From Nitrospinota bacterium (lineage in GTDB: Bacteria > Nitrospinota > Nitrospinia > Nitrospinales > VA-1), in NCBI GenBank assembly GCA_027619975.1, contig JAQCGX010000009.1, forward strand, positions 5,813-69,812: DNA of 64,000 bases. The letters are read 5' to 3'. Shown here one piece after another: positions 5,952 through 60,686 of the stretch. A program made the translations under genes and the position numbers. The notes beneath the pieces were generated by a model. The model ran no database searches and was not told the origin of the DNA. It saw only the letters and a program-made list of their open reading frames with translations. Within the stretch, counting starts at the first letter, position 1. Each line of letters opens with the position of its first letter.

Positions 5952-5975
5952 ACTCTAGGCGGGGCGGGACATTTT

Positions 5976-8169: not shown

Positions 8170-8199
8170 TTCTTTTAAACCCATTCAATTTTTATTCAG

Positions 8200-9433: not shown

Positions 9434-9758
9434 TCCAATTGCAGGCTCGTACTTTTTTCAGACGGTAAGGCCCTGTAATTTCCGTAAACTAACCAATTTC
9501 ATTAGACTTTAATTTCTTGACTTTACAAAAACCCTATGATATTTCTCTACCCTATTTTAATGTGTCCGGTATTTTTTGGGTAAGATTTAAGGGTTTAATT
9601 TTCAATGAGTTACCCTTATTTCATGAACAGAAAAAAACACCATTCGGAGAATAAGGCCTCACAATCAGGGGGTCGAAGTTACCAAATTTTTCTCTGAAAT
9701 ACGTATTGATTTATAACGTGTCAAATTTTCCAATCATCTGGCGTTAGAGGGAGCCCTG

Positions 9759-11867
9759 ATGGACAGTTTTCGGAACCTGAAATACAAGTCATTTTCACTT
9801 AAAGTTCTTTTCGCCCTGATTCTGGTTTACGGACTGGTTCACCTGGCGCCTGAACCTTTTTCGTCGTCCTCAAAATTCAGCTTCGTGGGTGGTCCTGACA
9901 AGGTATTTGCTCAGGAAGAAGATGAGTTTGAAGAAGGCGAGGAAGCCCCTGCTGAAGGCGAGGAAACTGGTGCAGAAGAAGGTTCTACAGATGGTGAAGA
10001 TGCCGCCGTTGCGGGTGAAGAAGAGGAAGATTTATCCTACCTGACAGATATCGGACCCGCTAAAGACCATGAATTTAAACCTTTCTCCTTCATGGGATTT
10101 AGTAACCGCAAGATCACCTGGGTAGCCGCCCAATTACATATTCTGTTTGCCTCGTTCATTCTTGGCTGTCCCATGTTTGTTGTCATCATGGAGGTCATGG
10201 GGGCCCGAAGGACTCAGGGGGTTCGTAAGGCGATCATTCTTTCCAATGTTTTTCTCGGCGTGCTGATCGGCGTTGTTATTGGGATAACCGGAGAAATTAT
10301 CGTCGGTATTCACCATGGCGTTCTCTATGGTCTATGGGCGTGTGCATTTGGCGCATTTATCGTGAGTTTCCTGAACTATTTCCATCGATTGATGGACGTC
10401 AGAGTTTCAGCTCTGGTTGGCGCCGTATTTGGGACACTCATCGCTATTCCACTGACCCCTGTCGAACATATTGAAACATCGGGCATCATCTTAGCCGTCA
10501 TTAATGGCGCGGTGGGTGGCACCCTGGCAAATATGATCATGTTTGCCAAGTCCGACTTCAAGTTTGAGCGGTTGGCTCACGAGATCACCAAAGTCATCGG
10601 CATGTGTTACAGCTTCACCGCTCTCACCGGCGGGTTGTTTCTTTTTGTGATGATCGTGCTCTACCAGGACTTCATCACCTATCTGGTGCAATCCTTCCCG
10701 GTTCTGTTCATGGTGGCCTACCCGACGCTGTTCATCCTGGAAACCATCGTCATGTACATTTACGTGTACTCCTGGGATCCACTCAATCAACAGAATAAGA
10801 AAGGCCGACACATCGTTTGTGGCGTTGTCTTGAATGTTTTAGGTCTGTCTCTGCTTTGTGCGCTCGACGGTCCGGCTACTTTCATGCAGACACCTCCAAA
10901 ACCCCTTGATGAACTGATGAACATCAATGAATGGTCGCGAATCGCCACTTCCACCTGGATGCCGCTCAATTACCATCGTCTGGTGGGCAATGGCACCTTT
11001 GGCGGTTATATGGTCGGCATCATCGGCGCGTACATGTATCTTTGGTCGGATAAAAAGGAAGAAAAGGAATATTACGACTGGGTCGGGTATATCGGCAACA
11101 TCATTGGCGTCGCCATCATGATTCCCCTGCCAGCCATGGGTTATATCTTCGTCCGCGAAATTTACCAATACGATGCCACCATCGGCATGTACATCATGTC
11201 GGACCGGGAATCAATGTTCATGCTCGTGCAGGGTTTACTGGTCGGAACCATGTTCAGCGCCAGTAATATCTATATGTGGGTGAGTATGAAGCGTATTGAA
11301 AATGCACAACGGTTTTTCCCGGCCATGAAGTTCGGATTCATCCTGATTGTCATATCCGCAACCATTTGGTTCACACCCAGGCGCTTCTTTGCCACGATGA
11401 TGCCGGAACCGGGAATGGACCCCAATATGGTGCTACCGGATAACCTGGCGTTCCTGGCTCTCATGATATCCAAGAACACAGCGGCATTTGCCCTGGTCAC
11501 GGTAACTTTCATCAATTACGTCTTTTACACCATTGCCACGAAAACCGGGAAGGTGCATTACGGAAAAATCAACCCGCTGGGAATATATGTTCTGATTTTA
11601 CTCGGATTTGCGGATATCTGGCTGATGAGCTGGATGGGGACCATTCGTGAGCTATCGCGAATGAACTGGCATATCTATAAAGTCTTTAAAGACGTGACGC
11701 CGGAGAAATTTGCCCCATCGCTTGCTGAGTCCGGGTTCCATGTCACCACCATCGTTTGGACGTTTTTTATTATTATGACGGCCACGATCTGGCTTGCCAT
11801 TAAGTACCCAAAAACCAAGAAAACACCGGCAATACCGGCTACAGCTACGCCACAAATGGCTGAATAA
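9759..11867 (+). CDS. cytochrome bd oxidase subunit I (CydA)-like polytopic membrane protein ('bd-like oxidase')
   Basis: 702 aa with many TM helices. The first core helix, WVAAQLHILFASFILGCPMFVVIMEVMG, mirrors the CydA helix-1 pattern (H-x-L-F ... L-G ... I-M-E) that carries the heme-ligand His. After the signal anchor there is an N-terminal acidic tract of about 45 aa. Confidence 0.65.
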   Translation: MDSFRNLKYKSFSLKVLFALILVYGLVHLAPEPFSSSSKFSFVGGPDKVFAQEEDEFEEGEEAPAEGEETGAEEGSTDGEDAAVAGEEEEDLSYLTDIGPAKDHEFKPFSFMGFSNRKITWVAAQLHILFASFILGCPMFVVIMEVMGARRTQGVRKAIILSNVFLGVLIGVVIGITGEIIVGIHHGVLYGLWACAFGAFIVSFLNYFHRLMDVRVSALVGAVFGTLIAIPLTPVEHIETSGIILAVINGAVGGTLANMIMFAKSDFKFERLAHEITKVIGMCYSFTALTGGLFLFVMIVLYQDFITYLVQSFPVLFMVAYPTLFILETIVMYIYVYSWDPLNQQNKKGRHIVCGVVLNVLGLSLLCALDGPATFMQTPPKPLDELMNINEWSRIATSTWMPLNYHRLVGNGTFGGYMVGIIGAYMYLWSDKKEEKEYYDWVGYIGNIIGVAIMIPLPAMGYIFVREIYQYDATIGMYIMSDRESMFMLVQGLLVGTMFSASNIYMWVSMKRIENAQRFFPAMKFGFILIVISATIWFTPRRFFATMMPEPGMDPNMVLPDNLAFLALMISKNTAAFALVTVTFINYVFYTIATKTGKVHYGKINPLGIYVLILLGFADIWLMSWMGTIRELSRMNWHIYKVFKDVTPEKFAPSLAESGFHVTTIVWTFFIIMTATIWLAIKYPKTKKTPAIPATATPQMAE

Positions 11868-11884
11868 CCGTTTAGGAGCAAGGA

Positions 11885-13180
11885 ATGCAGGAAAAAACTT
11901 TTAAACAAAAAGCGACCAAAATTGTACCCATATCTCTGGGTTTAATAGCCGTATTCTGGATTGGCGGGAACGCTATCGGCCTTTCCCCCGCCGTTGTAAA
12001 ACGGTTAGCGGGAATCGTTCTGGTGGCGATGACCTATGCCCTTTTATTGGCTATTCCAAAATCAGAATTTAAGGAAAAGACCTTTTTCCAGAATTTGAAG
12101 TTTAAGATTCCGGTCATCACCATTATTGCAGTCATTATCTGGGTTGTCTCCGGGCAATTTGGTTTTCCCATCTGGTGGCAGATTGAGTTTGTGGCTTTTG
12201 CTTTGGTCGGCCTGACCTATTTCGTGTTGCTGGACTTACGGGCCATGAAACCGGAAAAAGGCCAGGTTCAAACCACGATTCGCCTGATCGGCACGTATGC
12301 ACTACCGTCCATACTTTTTATTGTCATCACCGCCCAGCTCCCCCAGTTCGATCCACAATTTGAGTTGGATAAGCTCAACAAGCCGCCGGTGAAACTATCT
12401 GGCTTGGCAGGCCCTGAAGTCATCGCTGCGGGCCGGGAAGTGTTCGAAAATAACAAATGTTTCAACTGCCATAAAGTTTTCTGGGAAGGCAATTCCGATC
12501 GAGGCCCCAATTTAGGCACCAAGCAAATTGGCCTTTACTCGGATGACTACATTAAAGAACAAATTTTGGAACCCAGAAAAAAACAATCGCCCGGCTTTGA
12601 TGACCCCAAGTCGAAAAAAGCCATGCCGACTTATTATGGGGAGGATCTCAGCGAGGATGAACTGTCCGCTCTTGTGTCTTACTTAAAGACTCTGAGAGAT
12701 CCCACCCATATGCCGGTGGAGGGAAAATTCCCCGATCAATGGACCTGGTGGGACGATGCGACTATAGTTGCCGAAGGCCAGCAGGTTTTTGAGGGAGCCG
12801 AACCCGCAACGGAGGGTCTCAACTGTGCGGTCTGTCATGGTAAAGATGGAACTCCCATGATGACCGGTGCTTTGGACTTCAGAAAAGAAGACAATCCCGA
12901 CACCTTAAAAATGCCCGATAGGCTCCCTGATGTGTTACTCAAAGACTGGCCGGATGCTCTTTGGTACAAAAGGGTCACTCGCGGCGTCGACGCTACGCCT
13001 ATGGCTCCCTGGGGCATGATATTTCAGCATCTGTATTTGTGGAAAGCCGAAGCCTATGCGCGGACATTTCACGATCCTCTGGATAAGAGAGCCGCAAAAC
13101 GGCCTGTTCCACCTGTTCCCACCAAGGAAGAGGTTGAAAGTTGGAAAACGAATGGATTGTTCCTCGATCCGCTTATTTAA
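11885..13180 (+). CDS. membrane-anchored diheme c-type cytochrome
   Basis: 431 aa with about 5 N-terminal TM helices. These are followed by two cytochrome c domains with CFNCH and CAVCH heme motifs. It lies 18 nt downstream of the CydA-like gene. Confidence 0.75.
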   Translation: MQEKTFKQKATKIVPISLGLIAVFWIGGNAIGLSPAVVKRLAGIVLVAMTYALLLAIPKSEFKEKTFFQNLKFKIPVITIIAVIIWVVSGQFGFPIWWQIEFVAFALVGLTYFVLLDLRAMKPEKGQVQTTIRLIGTYALPSILFIVITAQLPQFDPQFELDKLNKPPVKLSGLAGPEVIAAGREVFENNKCFNCHKVFWEGNSDRGPNLGTKQIGLYSDDYIKEQILEPRKKQSPGFDDPKSKKAMPTYYGEDLSEDELSALVSYLKTLRDPTHMPVEGKFPDQWTWWDDATIVAEGQQVFEGAEPATEGLNCAVCHGKDGTPMMTGALDFRKEDNPDTLKMPDRLPDVLLKDWPDALWYKRVTRGVDATPMAPWGMIFQHLYLWKAEAYARTFHDPLDKRAAKRPVPPVPTKEEVESWKTNGLFLDPLI

Positions 13181-13208
13181 TAAAGATATAAGTCTCACTC
13201 GAATCATT

Positions 13209-13240
13209 AGCCGGTTCCTTTATCGGGGCCGGCTTTTTTA
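13209..13240 (+). terminator. rho-independent terminator
   Basis: agccggttcc-tttatc-ggggccggct followed by TTTTTT, 29 nt after the cytochrome c stop. Confidence 0.7.
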
Positions 13241-13321
13241 TTGCTTTAAATCCTTCCTTCGCCGCTTTTCTGTTAAAATATAAAAACCTATAAAGACTTA
13301 AAGACAATTTTGGAGAACTTA

Positions 13322-13801
13322 ATGAGCAAACTTGATGACCTGATAAAAGAAAACCTGACCCCGGATGGAGAGGTTTTAACCCTTAGGGAAAAGTTTTTGG
13401 GTGTACGTGGTTTAATGAAATTAGCCGAACACCCGGCACTGGCTACAGTAAAAAAACTGGTTCTACCCGCAAATCAGGCCAGCGACGAAGGCGCAGAAGC
13501 ATTGGCAAACTCGCCTTACCTGGGAAACTTGGAGCATCTCAATTTAAACCACAATGAAATTGGGGATGACGGTGCCATTGCCCTGGCAAACTCCGATAAA
13601 CTCCCCAAGCTCACAGATTTGTCCATGTTTGGAAATGCTGTTGGCGATGTGGGGGCTAAAGCTTTTGCGGATTCCCCGCACAGCAAAAAATACATCAAGC
13701 TGGATCTCTACAAAAACCAGTTTGGAAGCGAGGGGTACAGAGCCTTAACTGAATCTGAAAATTTAAAAAACTGCGAGGAACTGGAAATCTATCGCGACTA
13801 A
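13322..13801 (+). CDS. leucine-rich repeat protein (ribonuclease-inhibitor-like LRR)
   Basis: About 159 aa from the ATG at 13322 (GGAGA 5 nt upstream). It has repeats of about 28 aa: LxxLxLxxNxIGDxGAxALAxS. Confidence 0.7.
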   Translation: MSKLDDLIKENLTPDGEVLTLREKFLGVRGLMKLAEHPALATVKKLVLPANQASDEGAEALANSPYLGNLEHLNLNHNEIGDDGAIALANSDKLPKLTDLSMFGNAVGDVGAKAFADSPHSKKYIKLDLYKNQFGSEGYRALTESENLKNCEELEIYRD

Positions 13802-16097: not shown

Positions 16098-16172
16098 GAA
16101 ATTATCCTTGAAGAATTATTGTCCGGCGGGTTTCAATTTTTATGATTCCTGATGGAGACCGGCAAGAAACGG

Positions 16173-16763
16173 CTATTTATGCCGCTTGCGGCTGAGTTGT
16201 TCCCATTTTTTGGGTTCGGCTTTTTGCTGGGTTTTACGAAGGATAAAATTAAAAATTATTCGGGCATCTTTTTGTTGGGTATGGGTTCCCAGCAAGCGAG
16301 CCACAGTCTCCTTTTCAAAATCAAGAAAAGGTCTCAGCTGACGGCCAACTTTTTTGACGATTTGTAGATTACTCAAATCCGAAGCATTTTCCCGATTAGA
16401 AGTTTTACCTGCATCTGGAATCGAGCGAGGTTGTTGATTGTGCGAACCTTTCAGAGGTAGCGGTGAAACCCGGGGTCGTTGTCCCAGAAAATATGAGATG
16501 GCAAAACCCGCTTCCGTGCGGGTCAACGCTTCGAGATGATCTCGAACCACGTCCCGCAACGGGCCTGAAGAGTGATTATTTTCCATGCCGCAAAGTTTCC
16601 AAAGGTCCCCTCCCGCAGGCTCAAGGATTCCGAGATCCGCGAAATGATGCATAAATGCAAGGACTCCGGGGGCATCCAAATCCGAGGGCGCCAATTCCGA
16701 TTTGAACCAGGCAGACCACTGGTCAAGCTCGTAGGGTTGATCCGCGGCCATATCCAAATTCAT
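16173..16763 (-). CDS. hypothetical protein
   Basis: 196-aa ORF in the same orientation as its neighbours. I recognise no motif. Confidence 0.4.
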   Translation of the reverse strand: MNLDMAADQPYELDQWSAWFKSELAPSDLDAPGVLAFMHHFADLGILEPAGGDLWKLCGMENNHSSGPLRDVVRDHLEALTRTEAGFAISYFLGQRPRVSPLPLKGSHNQQPRSIPDAGKTSNRENASDLSNLQIVKKVGRQLRPFLDFEKETVARLLGTHTQQKDARIIFNFILRKTQQKAEPKKWEQLSRKRHK

Positions 16764-16770
16764 TTCACCT

Positions 16771-17451
16771 TTAAACTCCCTTCAAGCGAAGTTGCGTGTC
16801 TTCTGTAGTCCCGTCGTTTAACCGCTTTTGAAACGTTTCCCGCCAGCTATCCGACAACGCCGCAACCGATAGAATTTCACCAATCCCGTCCCAGTCCTTT
16901 TTGTTCTTATGCATGAGGTCATTGGCGGTTTCAACAGAAATCCCTTTGGGGTCAGCTTGCAAAGGAACAATTTTCTCACCGGCCTCCACCCACCCCGGTT
17001 TGAGGACGCGCAGGTAGTAGCCGCTGAATCCCGTGGTTTGCACCCGGCAGGCCATTCCCTGAAAATCAAATACCTTATTGAGTTTGTGGCAGGGTTGCCG
17101 GGGTTGGGTGCATTGCACCTCCGCTTCGCCAACGCGGAAAACGTCGCCAATATGAACCTCGGTTTCCGTCAACCCGGTCACACTTAAATTTTCACCAAAA
17201 GCCCCGAAACTCAATGCCTGTTTCAACTCCTTTTCCCAGAAAGGATAATGATCAATGCAATAAACGCACACCGCCTTATCGCCGCCCCCATGAAAGCGGT
17301 GATCGGCAACGCCATCGCCCTGAAAACCAAGATTATCGAGAAAAATTTTTCCCTGAACGGGTTTTTTCAGGATTCCAGAGAATATTTTTTTGTCCCCAGA
17401 AACAAGCACATTTCCAGGAACTGCAATATTTATCGATTGAATTGTCGCCAT
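16771..17451 (-). CDS. MOSC domain protein (YiiM-like)
   Basis: The likely start is MATIQSINIA at 17451. Motifs are HGGGDKAVCVY, GAFGENLSVTGL, and CTQPRQPCHKLN with the conserved MOSC Cys. Confidence 0.8.
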   Translation of the reverse strand: MATIQSINIAVPGNVLVSGDKKIFSGILKKPVQGKIFLDNLGFQGDGVADHRFHGGGDKAVCVYCIDHYPFWEKELKQALSFGAFGENLSVTGLTETEVHIGDVFRVGEAEVQCTQPRQPCHKLNKVFDFQGMACRVQTTGFSGYYLRVLKPGWVEAGEKIVPLQADPKGISVETANDLMHKNKKDWDGIGEILSVAALSDSWRETFQKRLNDGTTEDTQLRLKGV

Positions 17452-17853
17452 GAGCCTAATTTTGACATTTAGTTTGGAGATTATAAAAATATTCCCAAAA
17501 GTTGCTCGGTCACACTTTATCAAATTTTCGTAGGCGATGTGATTGAATTTAATTATTGAGAAGGGGAATCAGAGGTGGAGGTTCGGCGAAATAGCTCAAA
17601 CCAACTATTCGAAGTCCTAGAGGAATGGAGCACATTCCTCGCGCTTTCTTTACTTAATTTAACGTCACCCACTTCCAGGGTTGAGGATCTTCCCGAAAAA
17701 ATTGAGTCTGCCTTATTTTTTATCAAATCAATCCGGATTTGCCCGCAACTATAGCATGTTTTCAGTTTTTTAAATTATTGGGGAGAAGTCTTAGGGAGCG
17801 CTTGGTTCATTAACGACTTGTTCAAATGGGCTTTCTCCGGTTTCATTCTAGTT

Positions 17854-17869
17854 TGGTATATTTCTTGCT
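17854..17869 (+). promoter_or_regulatory. candidate sigma-54 (-24/-12) promoter
   Basis: TGGTATATTTCTTGCT has GG and GC elements at the canonical spacing (TGG-N8-TTGC). It sits 75 nt upstream of the transporter start. Confidence 0.4.
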
Positions 17870-17944
17870 TTTAGGGGTTTTGCGCCCTTAGAAACCAGTA
17901 TTCCGAAAAAGAATAAGAAATTTTAATTACAATTCCGGCCAAGA

Positions 17945-19366
17945 ATGGAGAAATTCAGCATGAGCAAACAAGAAAATTGCCACAATGCACTGGGTAACGC
18001 TTTCGATCCCGAGACCCATTTGACGCATGACGGTTCTCATACACCTCAGTCGGAGTGCTTGAATGAGAAGGATTCCTGTGAAAAAGATAACCCTTCCACC
18101 GAAGAGGATATAATCGACCGGGTGGTGGAAAACGCGGTGGTGAGAGCGATCTTTAATAACAATGACGTGTCCCGCAGGTCATTCATGAAGTTGGTGGGCT
18201 CCGGGACCGCGGCGGCGATCATTGCCAGCATATTTCCCTTAGGTGCCGCAAAGGCATTGGCCAAGGAGGGGCTGAAGGGGGGTCTGGAGATGAAAAACCT
18301 TTCACTCGGGTTCATCCCCATCACTTGCGCTACGCCCATCATCATGTCCGAGCCCATGGGATTTTACAAAAAAAACGGGTTGAACGCGAAGGTGCGCCGG
18401 GCCTCAGGGTGGGCCATGGTGCGCGACTGGGCGATCAACAAGGAAGTGCAGGCCGCGCATATGCTGAGCCCGATGCCGTTGTCGATTACCATGGGTGAGG
18501 GATCCAAGAAGGTTCCTTTTTTCATGCCAGCAATAGAAAATATCAACGGTCAGGCGATTACCCTGGCCAACAAGCACAAAGGAGTAAAATCCGCGAAGGA
18601 CATGAAGGGTTTCCGGTTCTGCGTGCCATTTGATTACTCCATGCACAACTTTCTTTTACGCTATTATCTGGCCGAGGGAGGCATCCATCCGGACAAGGAC
18701 GTTCAGATTCGTGTGATTCCGCCGCCGGAGATGGTGGCCAATTTGAAGGCGGGCAACGTGGACGGGTACCTGGCTCCGGAACCGTTCAACCAGCGTGCGG
18801 TGTATGAAAATGCCGGATTCATCTACAAGCTTTCTAAGGAAATCTGGCCGGGGCATCCTTGTTGCGCCTTTGGAATTTCACAAGAGTTCGCCAAGGAGAA
18901 CCCCAACACCTTTTTGGCGCTGTTCCGGTCGATCGTCGAGGCCACGCATTTCGCCTCGAATCCGGCCAACCGGAAAGATATCGCCAAAGCGATCGCTCCA
19001 AAGAATTATTTGAACCAGCCGCTCACCGTTGTCGAACAGGTGTTGACGGGCCGGTATGCCGATGGCTTAGGAAACATTAAGAACGAGCCGGACCGCATCG
19101 ATTTCGATCCTTTCCCCTGGCATTCGATGGCGGTTTGGATTTTGACTCAGATGAAGCGATGGGGCTTCGCCAAGGGCAACATCGATTACAAAAGTGTCGC
19201 TGAGGAGGTTTACCTGGCGGCGGAATGTGACAATATCGCCAAGGAGTTAGGATACGAAACCCATGGTGATACCTATGCAAAGCATGTCCTTATGGGAGGA
19301 AAGGTGTTTGATCCTTCCAAACCGGAAGAATATCTAAAGAGTTTTCCGATTCACAGCATGACATAA
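17945..19366 (+). CDS. NrtA/CmpA/CynA-family ABC transporter substrate-binding protein (nitrate/nitrite/cyanate type), Tat signal
   Basis: 473 aa with a twin-arginine motif SRRSFMKLVGSGTAAAII. That motif is preceded by a Cys/His-containing extension of about 75 aa. Gene order A-B-D-cynS matches known cyanate uptake operons. Confidence 0.8.
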   Translation: MEKFSMSKQENCHNALGNAFDPETHLTHDGSHTPQSECLNEKDSCEKDNPSTEEDIIDRVVENAVVRAIFNNNDVSRRSFMKLVGSGTAAAIIASIFPLGAAKALAKEGLKGGLEMKNLSLGFIPITCATPIIMSEPMGFYKKNGLNAKVRRASGWAMVRDWAINKEVQAAHMLSPMPLSITMGEGSKKVPFFMPAIENINGQAITLANKHKGVKSAKDMKGFRFCVPFDYSMHNFLLRYYLAEGGIHPDKDVQIRVIPPPEMVANLKAGNVDGYLAPEPFNQRAVYENAGFIYKLSKEIWPGHPCCAFGISQEFAKENPNTFLALFRSIVEATHFASNPANRKDIAKAIAPKNYLNQPLTVVEQVLTGRYADGLGNIKNEPDRIDFDPFPWHSMAVWILTQMKRWGFAKGNIDYKSVAEEVYLAAECDNIAKELGYETHGDTYAKHVLMGGKVFDPSKPEEYLKSFPIHSMT

Positions 19367-19390
19367 ACAGTAATAATTTAGGGGTAGAAA

Positions 19391-20296
19391 ATGGCAGAGA
19401 AAATACAGGTCTCCCAAAAAAAAGGTGCGTCCTATGCTTACATGCTGGTCTCCTTGGCGATTCTGGCGTTCTTCATTGGGGTGTGGCATCTAAATACGCT
19501 TACAAAGGAGTTTGTTTCGGCCGGGCTTTCCGAAGATCAACTCACGGTCATGGAGTTTAATGGCGATATCATTCGTACCGAGGATGGCGGTTACGAGAAC
19601 AACCCAGCGAAAACCCAGGGGATCCCCGGCCCCCTTGCTGTTCTGAAATACTCGATCGATCAATTTTCACGCCCGTTCCACAAGAACGGCACCAATGATC
19701 ATGGTATCGGCCATTTGGTCACCTATACCATCAAACGGTTTTTCTCGGGATTTCTGATCGCCTCGGTGATAGGCATTTTCATCGGCGTGATCATCGGTCT
19801 CAATGCCGTGATCTATCAGGCGCTCAATCCGTTTTTTCAAATTCTGAAACCCATTTCTCCGCTGGCCTGGATGCCCCTGTTGCTGTACACGGTTAAGGAT
19901 CCTAAAATCACGGCGATCTTGGTGGTATTCATGGCGGCGATTTGGCCGACCATGGCCAATACCGCCTTTGGCGTTAAGTCGCTCAAGAAAGAGTACCTTC
20001 ATGTCGCCAGCATTTTGCAACTTTCCTGGTTTACCAAGTTGTTCAAGGTCGTCCTGCCCGGCGCGGCGCCGGCCATTGTTGCGGGGTTACGCATTTCGTT
20101 CGGCGCGGCACTGGTAGCCGTGGTGCCGGCGGAAATGCTGTTGGGCGAACTGGGAGTTGGATACCTGACCTGGATCGAGTGGAACAACCTGGACATCTCG
20201 GGGGTTCTCTTTGCCATCGGGGTTATAGGGGTCGTTGGTTGGTCCTTGGACATGCTTTTCAATAGCGTCGCTAATTCATTAACCTATTCGGAATAA
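19391..20296 (+). CDS. NrtB/CynB-type ABC transporter permease
   Basis: 301 aa, polytopic, with an EAA-like loop (TMANTAFGVKSLKKEY). Confidence 0.8.
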   Translation: MAEKIQVSQKKGASYAYMLVSLAILAFFIGVWHLNTLTKEFVSAGLSEDQLTVMEFNGDIIRTEDGGYENNPAKTQGIPGPLAVLKYSIDQFSRPFHKNGTNDHGIGHLVTYTIKRFFSGFLIASVIGIFIGVIIGLNAVIYQALNPFFQILKPISPLAWMPLLLYTVKDPKITAILVVFMAAIWPTMANTAFGVKSLKKEYLHVASILQLSWFTKLFKVVLPGAAPAIVAGLRISFGAALVAVVPAEMLLGELGVGYLTWIEWNNLDISGVLFAIGVIGVVGWSLDMLFNSVANSLTYSE

Positions 20297-20316
20297 CCAA
20301 GGGTAAAAATCGAACC

Positions 20317-21225
20317 ATGAGTTATCTTGAACTTTCAAAAATCTCCAAGTACTTTAACAATCCAGAAGGTGAGGGCGAACCGCTCTGTGTTTTCAAAGAT
20401 GTCGATTTGAAAATCAATGAAAGCGAGTTCATCACCGTTGTCGGTCATTCGGGTTGCGGTAAGAGCACCATGCTCAATATCATCGCGGGACTCGACGAAG
20501 CCTCCGAGGGTGGGGTGATTTTGGAAGGGAGAGAAGTGAACAGCCCTGGGTTGGACCGAAGCGTAGTGTTTCAAAACTTCGCGCTGATCCCGTGGATGAC
20601 GGTTTATCAGAATATCCGCCTAGCCGTGAAGGCCGCCAATCCTGACTGGAACAAGGATAAGATCAGGGAATACTCCTACAAGTACATCGACTTGGTCAAT
20701 CTTCGCCAAGCGGCCAATAAGCGGCCCTCCGCGCTTTCAGGTGGCATGAAACAGCGAGTCGGGCTGGCCAGGGCGTTTTGCATCAACCCCAAGGTCCTGC
20801 TGTTGGACGAACCCTTCGCTCAGATCGACGCCCTCACTCGGGGCGTCATCCAGGATGAACTTGTCGAAATGTGGAATGCCTCGAAAAATACGGTGTTCAT
20901 GGTCACTCATGATGTGGACGAGGCCATTCTTTTAAGCGACCGGGTGGTCTTGATGACGAACGGGCCCAACGCCCGCATCGGAGAAATCATCGAGATCGAT
21001 ATTCCGCGTCCGAGGGAGCGCACGACCATTATCGACCATCCCCACTATTACAAGATCCGGAACCACATCATTCATTTTCTTATAGAACGTTCGCAAAAAA
21101 TGTCCGGAGCCGCCAAATCCGATGCCGATGCCGAGCAGGCACCACCGCCGTCTGAGGGTTCGCGTGTGGTGCATTTTAGGGATGAAGCTTCGGAGTCTGA
21201 ACCCCATCTTCGGGCAATTCAATAA
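20317..21225 (+). CDS. NrtD/CynD-type ABC transporter ATP-binding protein
   Basis: 302 aa with Walker A GHSGCGKST, signature LSGGMKQR and Walker B LLLDEPF. Confidence 0.9.
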   Translation: MSYLELSKISKYFNNPEGEGEPLCVFKDVDLKINESEFITVVGHSGCGKSTMLNIIAGLDEASEGGVILEGREVNSPGLDRSVVFQNFALIPWMTVYQNIRLAVKAANPDWNKDKIREYSYKYIDLVNLRQAANKRPSALSGGMKQRVGLARAFCINPKVLLLDEPFAQIDALTRGVIQDELVEMWNASKNTVFMVTHDVDEAILLSDRVVLMTNGPNARIGEIIEIDIPRPRERTTIIDHPHYYKIRNHIIHFLIERSQKMSGAAKSDADAEQAPPPSEGSRVVHFRDEASESEPHLRAIQ

Positions 21226-21263
21226 GGTTTTAAACGTCATTTTCAATCAAAGGAGACTCACCG

Positions 21264-21716
21264 ATGGATAAAAAAGAACTGGTAAAAAAACTTCTGGAAG
21301 CTAAGGAGAAATCCGGGAAAACCTATGATCAGATCGCGGACAAGCTGGGAGTGGCCAACGGTTACGTGGCACAACTGTTTCAGGCGCAAGCGCAATTGAC
21401 ACCGCCGTTGGACAAGAAACTTAGTAGGGTGGTCCCCGGTTTGACCAAGGACCTGTTGAAGGAAATGTCCAAATGCCCCATGCGGTCCTACAATCCCACG
21501 CTCCTTCAGGAACCGAACGTTTACCGCATGACTGAAGTTTGCCTGCACTATGGCGAAGGCATCAAAGCCGTCATGAACGAGAAATTCGGCGACGGTATCA
21601 TGTCCGCAATCGATTTCCGGCTGACAATTGACAAGGTCAAGGGAGATAAAGGGGAGGATCGCATGGTCGTTACCATGAACGGCAAATTCCTGCCTCACAT
21701 CATCCAAACTATGTAG
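21264..21716 (+). CDS. cynS: cyanase (cyanate hydratase)
   Basis: 150 aa. The C-terminal half, NEKFGDGIMSAIDFRLTIDKV...MVVTMNGKFLPH, closely parallels E. coli CynS ([21 protein letters not shown]...AVITLDGKYLP). Confidence 0.9.
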   Translation: MDKKELVKKLLEAKEKSGKTYDQIADKLGVANGYVAQLFQAQAQLTPPLDKKLSRVVPGLTKDLLKEMSKCPMRSYNPTLLQEPNVYRMTEVCLHYGEGIKAVMNEKFGDGIMSAIDFRLTIDKVKGDKGEDRMVVTMNGKFLPHIIQTM

Positions 21717-21919
21717 GCGACCGCGGGTCTAACGGATTCAACCCTTAGTCGAAGCGGGCGAAAGAAGAAAAAATTCCTCCCCCTGATCCGCTCTCAAAAA
21801 CAGATCAAGATCATATACAAGATTTGGATCAAAAACCCAATGATTGGGGAGGAAAAAATGGGTAGAAAGTCCGTCGCACATTAATATTAGGTCCAGCTGC
21901 ACGCTGGTGGACCCGAGGG

Positions 21920-22030
21920 GGAAAACGTCGCCAATATGAATCTCGGTTTCTGTCAATCCGGTCACACTTAAATTTTCACCAAAAGCACCCGAAACTCAAT
22001 GCCTGTTTCAACTCCTTTTCCCAGAAAGGA
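21920..22030 (-). pseudogene. duplicated internal fragment of the MOSC gene
   Basis: The 111 bp are about 96% identical (3 substitutions, 1 indel) to 17136..17245 in the same orientation. The fragment encodes FWEKELKQALSFG.F..(frame break)..TGLTETE.HIGDVF, and similarity ends abruptly on both sides. Confidence 0.85.
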
Positions 22031-22079
22031 AGAGAGCCGTCTCTAAAAAAAGGTTTGGATTTATTGATGAGGGGAAATG

Positions 22080-22510
22080 CTATATCCAGCTGATTCCGGT
22101 GATAAAATTTCTGGAGCCAGCTTTTAAATTGGGCAGGGAGTATCCTCCTTCCTGCACAAGCATGGAGACAAAGCAAACATCCTTTCTTTCATAAAAAATA
22201 TTCTGGGTACCGTTTCCATGATGATAATCAATGTCCAGAACAGCCACTCGGTTTTCTTTCGATAAATAATGCGCGGCTATGGCGGTACTGTTCAGGTAAC
22301 AAAATCCTCCGAACACTCTTCGCTCGGCATGGTGGCCCGGCGGGCGGCACAGCACATAAACCAGATCCTGGGCCTGATGGAAATTTTTCCTATCTGCGCT
22401 GCATATTCGGGAGAATAAGGAAGAGAATCCTGATATAATTCTAATACCGCGCCCAGTCTTTCTTTGTCCCCGAGCGTCGAGACCTGATACAATCTGCGAA
22501 ACTGAATCAT
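22080..22510 (-). pseudogene. histone deacetylase/acetoin-utilisation (HDAC) family gene remnant
   Basis: One frame reads RPPGHHAERRVFGGFCYLNSTAIAA...LDIDYHHGNGTQNIFY...FVSM, then jumps directly to QEGGYSL. The roughly 130 aa normally between these motifs are missing. The upstream part is in another frame and too short. Confidence 0.65.
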
Positions 22511-22631
22511 GAGTTTTTCCCGTGTGATATTTTTTCTTTCCTAAACAGCGAATAATATAATATCTTCATAGAAACTATCTACAGATAAGATAGTCATGAT
22601 CAATTTCCATATTTCTCAGGTGAAAATATAA

Positions 22632-22976
22632 GTGGAGAGGCAAAAGCCGCAGGACCCGATTAAAAATTCCGCAAAAACCAGTTCCCCCGCAAAAAAAACC
22701 AAACTCACTCCCGTAAGGACCCTCGGCCCTGTTTCGGATCTGGAACGCCATCTCCCTCCGGAATGGTGGAAAGACATTTTCAATTCATTGTATTTGAAAA
22801 CTGACGGCGACGTGGTCGAAAACGATTTGAACACAGTCCGCGATATTGACTGGGTCATCAAAACCACGGGGATTCAACCAACAGACCATATTCTGGACAT
22901 GTGCTGCGGACAGGGACGGCATTCGCTGGAACTTTCTGGCCGGGGTTATCTGAATGTTTCGGGACTGGACCGGTAA
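22632..22976 (+). CDS. class I SAM-dependent methyltransferase, N-terminal part ending at an in-frame TAA
   Basis: Motif I is ILDMCCGQGRHS. The ORF ends ...GLDR-TAA (22974-22976), and the same frame continues as RYLVRLARKRAKRRGLKVQFSEGDA. Confidence 0.6.
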   Translation: MERQKPQDPIKNSAKTSSPAKKTKLTPVRTLGPVSDLERHLPPEWWKDIFNSLYLKTDGDVVENDLNTVRDIDWVIKTTGIQPTDHILDMCCGQGRHSLELSGRGYLNVSGLDR

Positions 22977-23021
22977 CGGTATCTGGTCCGGCTGGCACGC
23001 AAACGGGCCAAACGGCGCGGG

Positions 23022-24569
23022 TTGAAAGTCCAGTTTTCCGAAGGCGACGCACGCAAACTCAGCAGTCTGGAAAGCTCCAAAGACTGCATCATCGTGATGG
23101 GCAATTCATTTGGATATTTTGAGCGTGAAGAAGATGACATTTCAATATTGGAGTCCATCAAGCACAGCCTCAAATCGGAAGGCAGGCTGGTACTCGATAT
23201 CGTCGACGGGGTATGGATGGCAACGAATTTTGAACCCCGGTCCTGGGAGTGGATCGACAAAACCCACTTCGTTAACCGGGAACGGTCCTTGACTCAGGAC
23301 CGAAAGCGCATCATTTCGCGCGAGGTGATCACAAATTCCGAGATCGGCGTCCTGGCCGACCAGTTTTACGCAGAGCGGCTTTACACCTTTGATGAAATCA
23401 CCCAACTTCTTACGAAGCTGGGTTTCACCCACATACAATCCCACGGCAACCTAGTTTCGGAGTCCACGCGCGGACAGGATCTGGGCATGATGGCTAACAG
23501 GCTGTTCATCACCGCCATGGGCCCGGTCAAAATCGCCGCCAAACCCCCGGCAAAAAAAGAAACCCGTCTCGTCACTGTTCTCATGGGGGATCCACGTCTT
23601 CCCGATACCGTTAAAAAAGACGGCAAGTTCAATGAAGAGGACATAGAGACCATCAATATTCTTAAACGCAATCTTGAGAAACTCTCGGAATATAAATTCA
23701 CCTATCTCGACGATCATAAATCAATTATCAAGCAAATCACCAGCAAGTCTCCCGGACTGGTCCTGAATTTGTGCGATGAAGGTTACAACAATGATCCCAC
23801 CAGGGAGTTGCATATCCCCGCCCTTCTGGAACTTTTGGATGTCCCTTATACCGGGGCGGGGCCAGGATGCCTCTGGCTTTGCTACAACAAGGCCAACGTC
23901 AGAGCTCTCGCCCAGAGTCTGGACGTGAGCGTTCCGATGGAAACGTATTTTGACCCTAACGATCATGCGGCCAACCTGCCTTCGTATTTTCCCGCGTTGC
24001 TCAAGCCCAATTGCGGTGACAGCTCAATCGGCATCACCCCTAAAGCAGTGGTTCATAACGCAGAGGAATTGCTCAGTTACCTGGATTATTTACGGGAAAT
24101 CCTTCCGGGCGTTCCCATCCTCATACAGGAATATCTTCAGGGTGCTGAATACAGCGTCAGCCTGATCGGCAATGCAGATAAGTTTGAGGTTCTGCCCATA
24201 CTGGAAGTAGATTACAGCGATTTGCTCCCGAATTTACCGCCGATTTTGTCTTACGATTCCAAATGGCTCCCGGATTCGCCTTACTGGAATCGCATCCATT
24301 ACAAGGAAGCGAAACTGGACGAGGAGAACTATCGCAAGCTGATGAACTTTTCGAGCCGGTTGTTCGAACGATTGGAGTGCAAGGATTATGCCCGCTTCGA
24401 TTACCGCGCCGACGCGGAGGGAAACATCAAACTTCTGGAAGTCAATCCGAACCCGGGCTGGTGCTGGGACGGTAAATTGAACCTCATGGCCGGGTTTGCG
24501 GGTATGGAATACTGGCAACTTCTTGAGATGATTCTCCAGGCCGCGAGAGAAAGAATTGCTGGGAGTTGA
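23022..24569 (+). CDS. methyltransferase C-terminal part fused to a D-Ala-D-Ala-ligase-like ATP-grasp domain
   Basis: It is in the same frame as 22632..22976. The methyltransferase post-motif region is DCIIVMGNSFGYF...EGRLVLDI. The ATP-grasp region follows: LKPNCGDSSIGI, LIQEYLQGAEYSVSLIG, ARFDYR...LLEVNPNPG. Confidence 0.7.
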   Translation: MKVQFSEGDARKLSSLESSKDCIIVMGNSFGYFEREEDDISILESIKHSLKSEGRLVLDIVDGVWMATNFEPRSWEWIDKTHFVNRERSLTQDRKRIISREVITNSEIGVLADQFYAERLYTFDEITQLLTKLGFTHIQSHGNLVSESTRGQDLGMMANRLFITAMGPVKIAAKPPAKKETRLVTVLMGDPRLPDTVKKDGKFNEEDIETINILKRNLEKLSEYKFTYLDDHKSIIKQITSKSPGLVLNLCDEGYNNDPTRELHIPALLELLDVPYTGAGPGCLWLCYNKANVRALAQSLDVSVPMETYFDPNDHAANLPSYFPALLKPNCGDSSIGITPKAVVHNAEELLSYLDYLREILPGVPILIQEYLQGAEYSVSLIGNADKFEVLPILEVDYSDLLPNLPPILSYDSKWLPDSPYWNRIHYKEAKLDEENYRKLMNFSSRLFERLECKDYARFDYRADAEGNIKLLEVNPNPGWCWDGKLNLMAGFAGMEYWQLLEMILQAARERIAGS

Positions 24570-24603
24570 TGTTGACCCGGTATTTTCTCCATAGTGTCGG
24601 AAA

Positions 24604-26100
24604 ATGAGTTTCACTCCCTACCAGCACCTTGAAAAACGTTTCAAACGGGTTGAGGTTCTCCGCAGCATCACTCACCTTTTGCGGTGGGATGCCGAAGTTC
24701 TGATGCCCCTGGGCAGTACAGGCATTCGTGCGGAACAATTGGCGTTGCTGGATACGGAATGCACGGCTATTCTCCTCTCCAAAAAAACTGCCGTGCTCCT
24801 GGATCGGGTCGAGTCCATCACCTATTCCCTGGATGATTGGCAGGAGGCCAATGTCCGGGAAATGCGCCGCCATTGGCAGCACGCCAATGCCATTCCCAAA
24901 CGGCTGACCAACTCCCTGCACCGGGCCACCACCAAAGCTGAGGTGGTCTGGAGACAGGCCTGTCAGGAAAACAACTTCAAAATATTATCTCCACATCTTG
25001 ATAGAGTAGTTGAAATTGTTCGTGAAAAGGCTCACTCGATGGGAGATGCCTTGAACTGTCTGCCTTACGATGCCCTGCTTGAAGAACATGATCCCGGCAG
25101 AAATACGTCCGAAATAGAATCCATATTTCAGCAACTGGGCTTGCACCTGCCACCATTAATCGACCAGATAATAAATAAACAGGCCGCAAATCCCCCGCAA
25201 GTCATTCGTGAAAAAATTTCAAAAGGAAAACAAAAAGACCTCAGCAAGCATCTGATGAAGAAAATGGGTTTCCCTTTTGACAAAGGCAGGCTGGATGAAA
25301 GCCTGCACCCGTTCACCGAAGGCACCTCGGAAGATCTCCGCATCACCTCATTGTTTGCGGAACACGACTTCCTGCCAGGGTTGATGGGGATCCTTCACGA
25401 AACCGGCCATGCCATGTATGATTTTGGATTGCCCTCTAAATGGTTCTTTCAACCGGTGGGTCGCGATCGTGGAATGACCGTGCATGAAAGCCAGGCACTG
25501 CTTCTGGAAATGATGATAGGGCGAACTCAGGAATTTATGATCTTCGCCGCCCCGAGCCTGGTAAAAATTTTTGGAGTTTCCGGGGTTGCCTGGGAACCCG
25601 AAAACCTGTTTCGAATTGCAACCCAGGTAAAAAGAAGTTTTAACCGGATGAACGCAGACGAGGTAACCTATCCCCTGCATATTCTGATGAGATATGAATT
25701 GGAAAAGGAAATATTTTCAGGATCGCTGCGTATAAAGGATTTACCCGAAGCCTGGAATGAAAAATTCAGACAACGGATGGGCATCATTCCCGACAACTGC
25801 AACCAAGGGTGCTTGCAGGATTCACACTGGCCGGCGGGGTATTTCGGGTACTTTTCAACTTATGCCCTGGGAGCCATCATGGCGGCACAGCTTTTCAGCA
25901 CCCTGAAAAAAGAGCAGCCCCATATCATGTCCGAAATTCAACAAGGAACTTTTGAGACCTTATTCAGTTGGTTGAACAGTAAAGTTTATCAGCATGGTGC
26001 AAAATTATCGAGCCAGGAACTCTTGCAACAAGCCACTGGGGAACAATTGAATCCCACCTCATATTTAAAATATTTACGGGAAAAATATCTCGGTGCATAA
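24604..26100 (+). CDS. carboxypeptidase Taq-like M32 metallocarboxypeptidase
   Basis: 498 aa with the HPF motif (SLHPFTEG), the zinc site HETGHAMY, and HESQALLLE. Confidence 0.88.
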   Translation: MSFTPYQHLEKRFKRVEVLRSITHLLRWDAEVLMPLGSTGIRAEQLALLDTECTAILLSKKTAVLLDRVESITYSLDDWQEANVREMRRHWQHANAIPKRLTNSLHRATTKAEVVWRQACQENNFKILSPHLDRVVEIVREKAHSMGDALNCLPYDALLEEHDPGRNTSEIESIFQQLGLHLPPLIDQIINKQAANPPQVIREKISKGKQKDLSKHLMKKMGFPFDKGRLDESLHPFTEGTSEDLRITSLFAEHDFLPGLMGILHETGHAMYDFGLPSKWFFQPVGRDRGMTVHESQALLLEMMIGRTQEFMIFAAPSLVKIFGVSGVAWEPENLFRIATQVKRSFNRMNADEVTYPLHILMRYELEKEIFSGSLRIKDLPEAWNEKFRQRMGIIPDNCNQGCLQDSHWPAGYFGYFSTYALGAIMAAQLFSTLKKEQPHIMSEIQQGTFETLFSWLNSKVYQHGAKLSSQELLQQATGEQLNPTSYLKYLREKYLGA

Positions 26101-26144
26101 AATGATCCCTTTAATATCTTACAAGAATTAAAGATTGGATTATT

Positions 26145-28097
26145 CTATTCGCCCCCACCCATTTCCTGAGGATTGAAAAACTGATAACAGTTTTTTCCCT
26201 GTTTTTTGGCGAGATACAGGGCATCGTCTGCATGTTTTAAAAGGGTGGTGCTGTTTTCCCCATCCCTGGGATAAAGAGCGACCCCCACACTGAGGGTGAT
26301 CCTGAGTTCATGCTCCTGAATATGCAAAGGCTGGCTCACCGCATGCAGGAGCTTTTTTGCCAGTTGGTCGACATCGCTTGGAGAATTGATTTCCGGTAAC
26401 AGGAGAATAAATTCATCGCCTCCCAATCGTGCGACGGTGTCCTGATTACGAAGGCAATTTTTTAATCGTGCCCCGATCCCCTTTAACACCTGATCCCCCA
26501 CTCCATGCCCCAAATTATCATTTATCTTTTTAAAATGATCAAAATCAAGAAATAAAACCGCCAACAGGCTCTGACTGCGTTGCGCCTGGGCCAATGCCAT
26601 TTCGAGTCGGTCATTAAGCAAAATACGATTGGGAAGTCCCGTCAATGCATCGTGATAGGCCATATTCCTGATCAGACCCTCCGTTCGCTTCCGCTCCAAC
26701 TCCGCCCCTGCCCTGGCCGCAAATAGTTTCAGAATAGACAGGGTCCGTTGTCGATCGGCCATGGGTTTTTCGTCCATGATCGACAAATGCCCGATGATCT
26801 TACACTTGGAGTCAAAACAGGGAACCGCCGCATAACTTCTGATGTCTCCGGTTGAGAAACTCAAATGACCATTGAAATTATTCTGTGTGGAATCAGGATT
26901 GAAAGAAACCATTCCTGCCAGCACATCTTCAAAAGGAGTATTTTTAATGGTAAACATTTGATCTCTTAAAAATTCGCCGTCATTCCAACCCGCTACAATA
27001 GAACATTCCGATGAGTTGTAACCCAACATTTCAGACACAAAAACTTTACTAACCCGGAGCGCCGTCGCGAGATGGCTAACAAGGGACTGAAAAAAATCAT
27101 CTCCCACTCGCGAGGAGGTCCCTTCTATAATGGAATGGAAGGCCGTCTCATCATTGTGACGCCGAATCTCACACCCAATATTCGCCGCCACAGCTTTTAA
27201 AAGAGATTCTTCATTCTTGGACCATTTCCTTTCGGATTGAGAATCTCCAAAGGTGATGAATCCCCAAAATGCTTCATCAATAATTACAGGAACCAATGAG
27301 AGCAATGAAATGCCCCGCTGTTGAATAGTTTCCGCAATTTTTTGGGGTAAGTCTTTTACCAGAATTTGAACAAAATTATCCGCCTTCAAAGAATTAAAGC
27401 AGTCTTCCATTTGTAAATTTTGAACCGTTTGGTTATGAAAGGAACCCTCAAGGTTTTCTTTGCGAACGGGCCCCTGATTCCAGAAAAAACATTTTACAAA
27501 TTTTTTCGATCCATTGGCGCCTTCATTACCCTGGTAAATTTCAACAATTTTTACTTTCAATGCCTTACCCAGAATATCCAGAGCTTTTGCAATTGCCTCC
27601 TGATGATTTTTTAAAATCAATAAACAATTTGTAGCGTCTGAAATGGCTTGCAACAACTGGTCCTGTACGCTTAAGGTATTTTCAGCCCTACGGCGCTGGT
27701 CGGCCTCCTCATGAATTCTGAGGGCCTGATGAATCGCATGGGATAAAGATTTAGCAGACAAACTCGACTTTCCAAGGTAATCGGTGGCTCCGGATTTCAT
27801 AACTTCAACGGCTATTTCTTCATCCCCCTGGCCTGTCAGGAAGATAATGGGAAGGGTATAACCCTTTTCCCGGACACTGCGTAGCAACTCCAACCCATTC
27901 TTTTCCCCCAGCCGGAAATCAAAAAAGCAAAAATTATAGTCGTTATTTTCAAGGTGGGATAAAGCATCGGAGGCGGAAGAAGCCCAGTCAAAATGTAGAT
28001 TTGTGGCGGGGAATCCATCTCGAATGAATTCTCTGATCAGGATGACATCGTCTTCATCATCTTCCGCGAGTAATATTTTTAGATTTGGAAACTGCAT
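26145..28097 (-). CDS. response regulator receiver - GAF - GAF - GGDEF diguanylate cyclase
   Basis: 650 aa with an N-terminal REC domain (LLAEDDEDD...IIFLTGQGDE). The central region is GAF-like. The C-terminus carries RLGGDEF. Confidence 0.85.
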   Translation of the reverse strand: MQFPNLKILLAEDDEDDVILIREFIRDGFPATNLHFDWASSASDALSHLENNDYNFCFFDFRLGEKNGLELLRSVREKGYTLPIIFLTGQGDEEIAVEVMKSGATDYLGKSSLSAKSLSHAIHQALRIHEEADQRRRAENTLSVQDQLLQAISDATNCLLILKNHQEAIAKALDILGKALKVKIVEIYQGNEGANGSKKFVKCFFWNQGPVRKENLEGSFHNQTVQNLQMEDCFNSLKADNFVQILVKDLPQKIAETIQQRGISLLSLVPVIIDEAFWGFITFGDSQSERKWSKNEESLLKAVAANIGCEIRRHNDETAFHSIIEGTSSRVGDDFFQSLVSHLATALRVSKVFVSEMLGYNSSECSIVAGWNDGEFLRDQMFTIKNTPFEDVLAGMVSFNPDSTQNNFNGHLSFSTGDIRSYAAVPCFDSKCKIIGHLSIMDEKPMADRQRTLSILKLFAARAGAELERKRTEGLIRNMAYHDALTGLPNRILLNDRLEMALAQAQRSQSLLAVLFLDFDHFKKINDNLGHGVGDQVLKGIGARLKNCLRNQDTVARLGGDEFILLLPEINSPSDVDQLAKKLLHAVSQPLHIQEHELRITLSVGVALYPRDGENSTTLLKHADDALYLAKKQGKNCYQFFNPQEMGGGE

Positions 28098-60612: not shown

Positions 60613-60686
60613 ATACCTGTTTTCAATCTCCACTTTTTTCAGGTAAAACGGAAATAGCTCTTCCGTATCAAATGCCATTAATATAA

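Follow-up and report, generated by a model that had tools for sequence, protein, structure and literature searches.

The 64,000-nt stretch of Nitrospinota DNA analysed here (assembly GCA_027619975.1, contig JAQCGX010000009.1, positions 5,813 to 69,812; hereafter the window) carries a cyanate-utilization cassette, cynABDS, that is bracketed by two directly repeated copies of an internal segment of a MOSC gene. Copy A lies inside the intact gene and copy B on the far side of the cassette. Our comparisons indicate that copy B is probably a stranded, decaying remnant of the MOSC 5' region, generated when one Nitrospinaceae lineage gained the cassette in the space between MOSC and the neighbouring upstream gene. 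The central evidence is a related contig, L135, in which the same locus is present without the cyn genes. Coordinates of the features are collected in Table 1, and positions refer to the window unless another contig is named.

The repeat pair in the window and in the population

The two copies have the same orientation and a spacing of 4785 nt, and the differences between them are three substitutions and one nucleotide inserted in copy B (110/111 nt aligned, 96.4% identity over 111 columns, blastn E = 2e-47). Similarity stops abruptly at both ends, and the repeat has an exact core of 43 nt. On the minus strand copy B reads FWEKELKQALSFG/AFGENLSVTGLTETEIHIGDVF, with a frameshift. An earlier inspection of the sequence (the original prediction) had described a 110-bp repeat with three substitutions, one indel and sharp ends, and alignment and blastn confirmed this description. 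The same prediction placed the MOSC 5' end, an AT-rich leader and a transporter with cynS between the copies, the latter unit opposite to MOSC, and a decayed HDAC-family gene beyond copy B. These assignments held as well: the spacer has a GC content of about 0.40, the genes were identified with Pfam, and the HDAC remnant was recognized by PF00850 on a called open reading frame (ORF) of 55 aa and reconstructed against L135.

Over the repeat segment copy A and L135 do not differ at all. All four differences sit on the copy B branch: the frameshifting insertion and, read on the sense strand, three G>A substitutions, of which one produces a V>I change. Copy B is closest to the MOSC gene of its own lineage (96.4%, versus 86% to the cassette-free relative L130). 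When the three substitutions were polarized as possible donor alleles, two of the sites proved to be homoplasic synonymous positions. No further copied fragments were found in the remnant zone.

The window and L135 have diverged by 2.5-2.8%, with a median of 3 differences per 110-nt segment and 4 or more in 41% of segments. As the four differences of copy B are typical of this divergence, it would date from about the time of the split and would have evolved free of coding constraint. Its conservation does not exceed that of the adjacent pseudogene pieces (96.4% versus 95.6%), which bears on the possibility that it has been co-opted. The interval from the cynS stop codon to copy B has no predicted plus-strand intrinsic terminator, and copy B is oriented like copy A; cyn read-through RNA would therefore carry 110 nt nearly perfectly antisense to MOSC mRNA and could work in trans as an antisense regulator that couples MOSC expression to cyanate use. 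If so, MOSC expression would depend on cyanate or nitrogen status through a link created by the integration itself. Besides the conservation values, several results argue against such a function. Copy B occurs in one population only, Rfam covariance models gave zero matches at E <= 1 over 16500-26500, and the fold z-score (-0.75) reflects no unusual structure. As the origin of copy B is also fully explained as a by-product of integration, we consider a regulatory role very unlikely.

To retrieve contigs of the same population, databases were searched for exact matches to MOSC, to CynS and to the product of a 72-aa remnant ORF. The contigs obtained came from JGI, ENA, NCBI (metagenome-assembled genome GCA_027624285.1, 'Nitrospinae bacterium') and Logan, and their identity to the window is 99.8-100%; 25 of them, from different samples and different assemblers, were compared. 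The source samples include brackish and marine metagenomes such as JGI 3300074305 and 3300004369 and ENA ERZ23495042. At least 10 metagenome assemblies, made independently and all representing one Nitrospinaceae population, have the repeat pair, and every contig long enough to span both sites contains both copies with the same four differences. Because of these differences, reads can be assigned to one copy or the other. A chimeric or collapsed repeat, which the original prediction had raised as a danger, might be suspected from the fact that short-read de Bruijn contigs do break at the 43-nt core: two 4802-nt Logan contigs (L013 and L014) start and end within it. These contigs are de Bruijn unitig breaks and not circles. 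The independent assemblies, from various projects, that span both copies with identical differences rule out an assembly artefact for all practical purposes.

The pre-insertion locus and the junctions

A scan of species-representative genomes yielded Nitrospinaceae relatives with MOSC proteins of 87, 71, 70, 55 and 50% identity. Five related loci (L018, L019, L020, L130, with MOSC at 90%, and L132, at 85%) are syntenic with the window on both sides and have the order DctM-DctQ-FGE-hyp-S49-GGDEF, 185-320 nt, MOSC-hyp196-PyrRedox, where hyp stands for a hypothetical gene. In blastn alignments of the window with L130, 30000-26157 matched 5821-9668 and 17575-14000 matched 9875-13456; thus, 17576-26156 (8.6 kb) is absent from L130. 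L135 was found through an ATP-grasp protein search, which returned a 98%-identical intact copy (P0242) on this large JGI contig. The L135 locus has the order PyrRedox-E2-E1-hyp192-MOSC(-), a 300-nt spacer, an intact 573-aa GNAT-HDAC gene(-), a methyltransferase/ATP-grasp gene(+), M32(+), GGDEF(-) and S49. It is without cyn genes, and both flanks are 97.2-97.5% identical to the window at the nucleotide level. The original prediction had asked whether MOSC and an intact HDAC gene are direct neighbours in genomes that lack the cassette, and in L135 they are, across the 300-nt spacer. This comparison shows L135 as the pre-insertion haplotype, and the immediate ancestor of the window looked like it.

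In L135 coordinates the window runs up to 7950, then contains 4344 nt of extra DNA (17576-21919, i.e. leader, cynABDS and tail), and then continues with 7542-7651, which is copy B. The extra DNA adjoins the MOSC promoter at about -125 on the MOSC side and MOSC nt +316 on the HDAC side. Copy A continues into the 3' part of MOSC. Copy B leads into L135-type spacer and HDAC sequence, starting with the last 51 nt of the old spacer, and a microhomology deletion of about 458 nt (L135 7652-8109) intervenes. This deletion comprises MOSC nt +1 to +206, the promoter and most of the spacer, and its ends are joined at GGA within the imperfect repeat CCCAGAAAGGA/CCAGATTAGGGA (right edge of copy B, J3). By blastn, 22028-22165 corresponds to L135 8107-8243, the end of the spacer and the 3' end of HDAC. 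A deletion of about 0.29 kb that ends at short imperfect repeats follows, and then a block equivalent to L135 8537-8741. After a further deletion of about 0.98 kb between CACATAAACCCGAT and CTCATAATCCCGAT, the window resumes at L135 9723 with the first 52 codons of HDAC and is collinear with L135 for 12 kb. All three deletions thus have short imperfect repeats at their ends. The left edge of copy B (J2) is its joint with the cassette tail at 21919/21920, which reads GGTGGACCCGAGGGGGAAAACGTCGCC; the patchy similarity seen beside it (CCGAGGGGG versus CCAACGCGG) may represent microhomology.

These junctions also bear on the possibility that copy B belongs to an old MOSC paralogue, now a pseudogene, in which gene conversion with the functional gene homogenized the central 110 nt. 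A weak protein-level echo just beyond the left edge of the repeat (IGDVFPLGSTSVQL versus IGDVFRVGEAEVQC) would fit such an origin, but only 12/30 DNA positions match beyond the edge, the right flank is L135 HDAC-MOSC spacer and not MOSC, and L135 has no second MOSC copy at this site. The comparison with L135 effectively refutes the paralogue, whose probability we regard as negligible.

The two genes next to copy B have decayed. HDAC lost about 1.3 kb through the two deletions described above, in agreement with the earlier statement that neighbouring genes had been clipped. The methyltransferase/ATP-grasp gene is intact at 645 aa in L135, Candidatus Nitrohelix and many Nitrospinae. Its TAA codon is fixed in all population contigs, so that the methyltransferase domain is lost and an ATP-grasp ORF of 490-515 aa is left.

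On the MOSC side of the cassette, homology to cassette-free relatives stops at -125 to -140 from the MOSC ATG, and blastn placed the breakpoint at 17575. Sliding identity between the window and L135 was 98-100% from +60 to +420, only 80% from +0 to +59 and 36% from -60 to -1. The first ~45 nt of the window gene, together with its promoter, are of a different allele type from L135; from -60 to +59 the window resembles L130 and L132, and L135 resembles L133. The switch between allele types at +45 to +60 is sharp and may mark a crossover.

Table 1. Positions of the repeat copies, the cassette and neighbouring features in the window
Feature	Position	Strand	Basis or remark
Intact MOSC/YiiM-like gene, 226 aa	16771..17451	-	PF03473 + PF03475
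Repeat copy A	17136..17245	-	MOSC nt +207..+316, inside functional gene
Conserved MOSC promoter-proximal region, motif AAATTCAATCACATCG...AAAATTTGATAAAGTG	17452..17575	-	Alignments to L016, L018, L130, L132, L133
Cassette leader, 313 nt	17576..17888	+	No match in any relative or closest cyn cassettes
cynABDS cassette core	17889..21716	+	Pfam; DNA similarity to L136-L141
cynA	17960-19366	+	NrtA-like/CmpA-type periplasmic binding protein, PF13379
cynB, permease	19391-20296	+	PF00528
cynD, ATPase	20317-21225	+	PF00005
cynS, cyanase, 150 aa	21264-21716	+	PF02560, E = 9.5e-29
Cassette tail, 203 nt	21717..21919	+	Without match in relatives
Repeat copy B	21920..22030	-	Frameshifted relic of MOSC nt +207..+316
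Relic of HDAC-proximal end of ancestral HDAC-MOSC spacer	22031..22079	-	L135 8110-8157
GNAT-HDAC remnants	22080..22510	-	3' end, internal 205-nt block, first 52 codons; 573 aa in L135
Methyltransferase/ATP-grasp fusion gene, broken	22632..24569	+	TAA at 22974-22976; TCA (Ser115) in L135
M32 carboxypeptidase, last gene of older HDAC / methyltransferase/ATP-grasp / M32 layer common with L135	24604..26100	+	
Response-regulator/GAF/GGDEF gene	26145..28097	-	Directly upstream of MOSC in insert-free relatives; stop codon is right edge of 8.6-kb block

Reconstruction of the integration

We infer that the repeat is the remnant of a longer duplication, of at least 441 nt, of the MOSC promoter and 5' end. 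The integration would have duplicated the MOSC segment from -125 to +316 (441 nt), one side keeping the complete gene with its promoter and the other side receiving a truncated copy joined to the old spacer. A molecule in which the cassette was joined to a MOSC 5' fragment could have recombined within MOSC, either by a Campbell-type single crossover of a circle or by an equivalent one-sided homologous event. A 4785-bp circle composed of MOSC -125 to +316, leader, cynABDS and tail would yield the proposed intermediate, and the joint between the cassette and the MOSC fragment would have arisen earlier by an illegitimate event. A later slippage-type deletion would have removed the promoter and first 206 nt of the duplicate, shortening the repeats from about 441 to 110 nt. 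Copy B would then have gained its three G>A changes and its frameshift, HDAC would have suffered its two deletions, and the methyltransferase/ATP-grasp gene would have acquired its stop codon. The exact integration mechanism is a reconstruction. The broader claim of the original prediction was that the cassette arrived by an insertion or illegitimate recombination and that the repeat is the scar of this event. It is supported by the pre-insertion state of L135, by the atypical composition of the cassette and by the unrelated loci in which its relatives reside (see below).

The same final sequence could have arisen by a one-step illegitimate insertion with filler DNA, in which a break in the HDAC-MOSC spacer was repaired with a 110-nt patch template-switched from MOSC about 330-440 nt away and copy B was never any longer. 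The position of copy B exactly between the cassette tail and the spacer relic, the short or patchy microhomology at both of its edges and the nearness of the template to the break all fit this scheme. It requires two template switches in one event, however, and the right edge of copy B bears the signature of the two independent deletions a few hundred nt away, i.e. short imperfect direct repeats. As the same signature recurs at these nearby sites, simple deletions do occur at this locus. In addition, insertion-duplication is experimentally documented (PMC3240628). We therefore regard filler insertion as unlikely. It is more improbable still that a simple insertion was followed by a 4.8-kb tandem duplication of 17136-21919, the second copy of which collapsed by illegitimate deletion to its first 110 nt. 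Tandem duplications are frequent in bacteria and the 21919/17136 joint looks as a tandem join point would, but this route takes three events instead of two, 4.8-kb tandem copies are normally lost by precise homologous recombination, and no second-copy cassette sequence lies to the right of copy B.

Several observations weigh against integration with duplication of the MOSC 5' region. The longer original extent of the duplicate is read solely from the continuity of copy B with the spacer relic, and a templated patch of 110 nt would have left an identical sequence. A donor arrangement, with the cassette beside MOSC in another lineage, was not found among 80 metagenome loci and the contexts of CynA relatives at 92, 90 and 82% identity, so that the joint at 21919/21920 could not be compared with unjoined donor sequence. 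No circular form was found among the population contigs. Contigs with the remnant ORF, 23 in all, were read, and the 10 places from them that were inspected included no excised or cassette-free variant. L135 is itself a metagenome contig and not an isolate. Finally, the switch of promoter and 5' allele may equally reflect a replacement in L135, in which case it would say nothing about a crossover. As the nearest outgroups, L130 and L132, share the allele type of the window, L135 may be the changed lineage, and the switch is suggestive only.

The original prediction held that the repeats could mediate excision of the cassette. Recombination between the present 110-nt repeats would remove the MOSC promoter and the first 206 nt of the gene, and the inspected places gave no sign of it. 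Excision between the original ~441-nt repeats would have restored the locus. Because of this difference, the trimming deletion would have stabilized the cassette, locking it in. It would also have removed a promoter firing antisense into cynS.

The favoured route, integration with duplication of the MOSC segment, resembles Campbell-type insertion-duplication in several respects. Part of the resident locus is present as a direct repeat on either side of the foreign DNA; the first copy is contiguous with the 3' part of the gene and the second with the original upstream DNA; and there is a possible crossover mosaic inside the repeat-bearing gene. In lacZ conjugation experiments in E. coli, single-crossover integration of a circle carrying part of a locus leaves duplications of 109-950 bp (PMC3240628). 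In contrast, the event described here is natural and took place in an uncultured bacterium, with neither donor nor circle observed, and one repeat was later trimmed to 110 nt. The locus also resembles homology-facilitated illegitimate recombination (HFIR), as presented in PMC3240628 for S. pneumoniae, Acinetobacter baylyi and Pseudomonas stutzeri, in having non-homologous DNA beside a homologous anchor, no dedicated mobility genes and possible short microhomology at the illegitimate joint. According to that source, HFIR joints use 3-10-bp microhomologies, and recipient DNA is usually deleted. Here, the primary event would instead have duplicated recipient DNA, the deletions lie at separate junctions, and an allele mosaic of ambiguous meaning is all that hints at a homologous crossover.

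The cassette, its insertion site and their biological context

The cynABDS unit is widespread and conserved. Most of the 80 related loci of sufficient length have its gene order; in a few, cynS lies upstream of cynA or between cynB and cynD. Transporter homologues bear the database names nitrate/nitrite or CmpA/NrtA. From the linkage to cynS only, we infer that the cassette transports cyanate and not nitrate, nitrite or bicarbonate.

Composition set the cassette apart, as the original prediction had proposed to examine. In the 4-kb interval 18001-22000 the tetranucleotide distance is the highest in the 64 kb (0.265 versus 0.163 +/- 0.024, +4 standard deviations), as is the GC content, and GC at third codon positions (GC3) is 0.63-0.66 in all four cyn genes versus 0.514 +/- 0.05 (z = +2.3 to +2.9). 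The M32 gene has a GC3 typical for the window. The GC content of 53-67% given in the original prediction was overstated for bulk DNA, which has values of 0.47-0.55 in 500-nt intervals, but it fits GC3. The closest CynA proteins are 92% (P0122), 90% (P0135) and 82-83% identical, the last group including a Nitrospinae metagenome-assembled genome; CynA relatives from Binatia and Tectomicrobia appear only at 76% or below. In the 92, 90 and 82% relatives the cassette neighbours are Fer2, UDG or a MacB/TP_0789-like cluster with MutL, and never MOSC. The cassette looks foreign and is a recent arrival in the lineage, with its closest relatives in other Nitrospinae at unrelated loci.

DNA similarity to the group with 92% identical CynA (L136-L141, 84-85% nt) extends from 17889 up to the exact cynS stop at 21716. 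Neither the 313-nt leader nor the 203-nt tail had a convincing match in about 120 non-population loci; a 49-nt match of 78% in L136 was rejected as not meaningful. The leader contains a sigma-54-like sequence, TGGTAT-N5-TTGCT, at 17854-17869, which is the candidate promoter of the original prediction. The 92% relatives have TGGCAT-N5-TTGA at the aligned position and thus lack the -12 GC, and in the 82% relatives the site is missing. Near-consensus sigma-54 sites are not above chance in the window as a whole (38 versus 30.3 +/- 5.3 expected). The tail contains a long hairpin at 21771-21864 (TTCCTCCCC...GGGGAGGAA), which has CCCAATCATTGGG as its inner stem and, on the minus strand, a T-run after it. 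The structure resembles a terminator that would act on minus-strand transcripts running from the HDAC side into cynS.

The spacer between GGDEF and MOSC contains different cargo in different relatives: nothing in L130, L132, L018 and L019; an SDF transporter and SnoaL in L016; CSD (a cold-shock gene) and three small ORFs in L133; HDAC, methyltransferase/ATP-grasp and M32 in L135; and the same three genes plus cynABDS in the window. As the four empty loci have GGDEF directly upstream of MOSC, the comparison identifies the cassette as the younger layer of a two-layer, 8.6-kb lineage-specific block, and as the cargo differs within the same spacer, the spacer behaves as a hotspot. Like integration hotspots, it has variable cargo between conserved core genes; unlike them, it is without an associated integrase, tRNA or att site. 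Turnover at this hotspot appears to run on homologous and illegitimate recombination alone.

The absence of such features bears on the suspicion, which direct repeats flanking a cargo segment naturally raise, that the repeat is a target-site duplication or att repeat of a transposon, an integron cassette or an integrase-driven island. Insertion of a transposon or insertion sequence is marked by a short (2-14 bp) target-site duplication, a transposase gene and terminal inverted repeats. The called genes of the block include no transposase, integrase or recombinase; no tRNA is present; and the two ends of the block have neither terminal inverted repeats nor any repeat of at least 9 nt in common. 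Moreover, 110 nt is far beyond the target-site duplications of transposons, and copy B does not lie at the edge of the 8.6-kb block. A mobile element of any of these kinds is extremely improbable.

The older layer of the block was also inspected. The HDAC gene of L135 (8158-9879) is a fusion of an N-terminal GNAT acetyltransferase with a C-terminal deacetylase (PF00583 + PF00850), and GNAT-HDAC is kept divergent from the methyltransferase/ATP-grasp and M32 genes in Nitrospinaceae. Candidatus Nitrohelix vancouverensis keeps the HDAC, methyltransferase/ATP-grasp and M32 genes together as a unit, at a different locus. These three genes may form a functional unit, which the lineage of the window is losing. 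A second GGDEF gene is another cargo in the GGDEF-MOSC spot (set compared: L016, L020, L133, L135 and L130).

Pfam assigned the MOSC gene to PF03473 (MOSC, E = 2.1e-36) and PF03475 (YiiM 3-alpha helix domain, E = 8e-12). The 60 nt nearest the ATG occur as two allele types, type I in the window, L130 and L132, and type II in L135 and L133. The motif AAATTCAATCACATCG...AAAATTTGATAAAGTG upstream of MOSC (about 17452-17590 in the window, 9875-10000 in L130, about 2340-2465 in L016) recurs in lineages whose spacers cannot otherwise be aligned and is a candidate operator/promoter of the MOSC-hyp196-PyrRedox operon. Downstream of MOSC, L135 (2468-6584) and L133 (11295-15397) have E1/E2 pyruvate dehydrogenase-type genes between hyp192 and the dihydrolipoamide dehydrogenase-like gene. 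The window (16098-16172), L130, L132 and L018 are without these genes. The adjacent PyrRedox genes of the window and L135 are only 92.6% identical, whereas identity elsewhere is about 97%. This drop suggests a separate recombination tract.

Another direct repeat, unrelated to the first, is located at 58719-58837 and 60748-60866 (119 nt, 99% identity, 2029 nt apart), with a further pair beside it at 58690-58719 and 60683-60712. Each copy starts with a 52-nt palindrome, AGTGGCACGGGCTTTCCAGCCCGTGCGAACAGGCTGGAAAGCCTGTCCCACT, and the pair brackets an S-adenosylhomocysteine hydrolase gene at 59207-60514 (PF05221/PF00670). It could be an intergenic hairpin element, resembling a repetitive extragenic palindrome or a terminator, or another rearrangement scar.

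Nitrospinae are the main nitrite oxidizers of the ocean. They are reported to assimilate cyanate even though cynS, which is horizontally transferred in this group, is patchy among their genomes (PMC7005884); the acquisition described here fits these reports. Clusters of cynABD with cynS occur in some nitrite oxidizers (PMC10753782). In the examples given there, Synechococcus elongatus cynABDS and Nitrospira moscoviensis cynABD-cynS, an NrtA-like protein, a permease, an ATPase and a cyanase occur in the same order as in the window; the window operon, with a predicted specificity for cyanate, differs in being a recent arrival with atypical GC3. The locus is a new instance of known processes and does not represent a new kind of element or mechanism. 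It provides a before/after pair, at about 97% identity, for the entry of cynABDS into a Nitrospinaceae chromosome with no mobile-element machinery, and its aftermath is visible: a host gene fragment duplicated and trimmed, and HDAC and methyltransferase/ATP-grasp genes eroded. As such, it is a useful worked example of recombination-driven gene gain and of how uncultured nitrifiers may acquire accessory nitrogen-acquisition genes.

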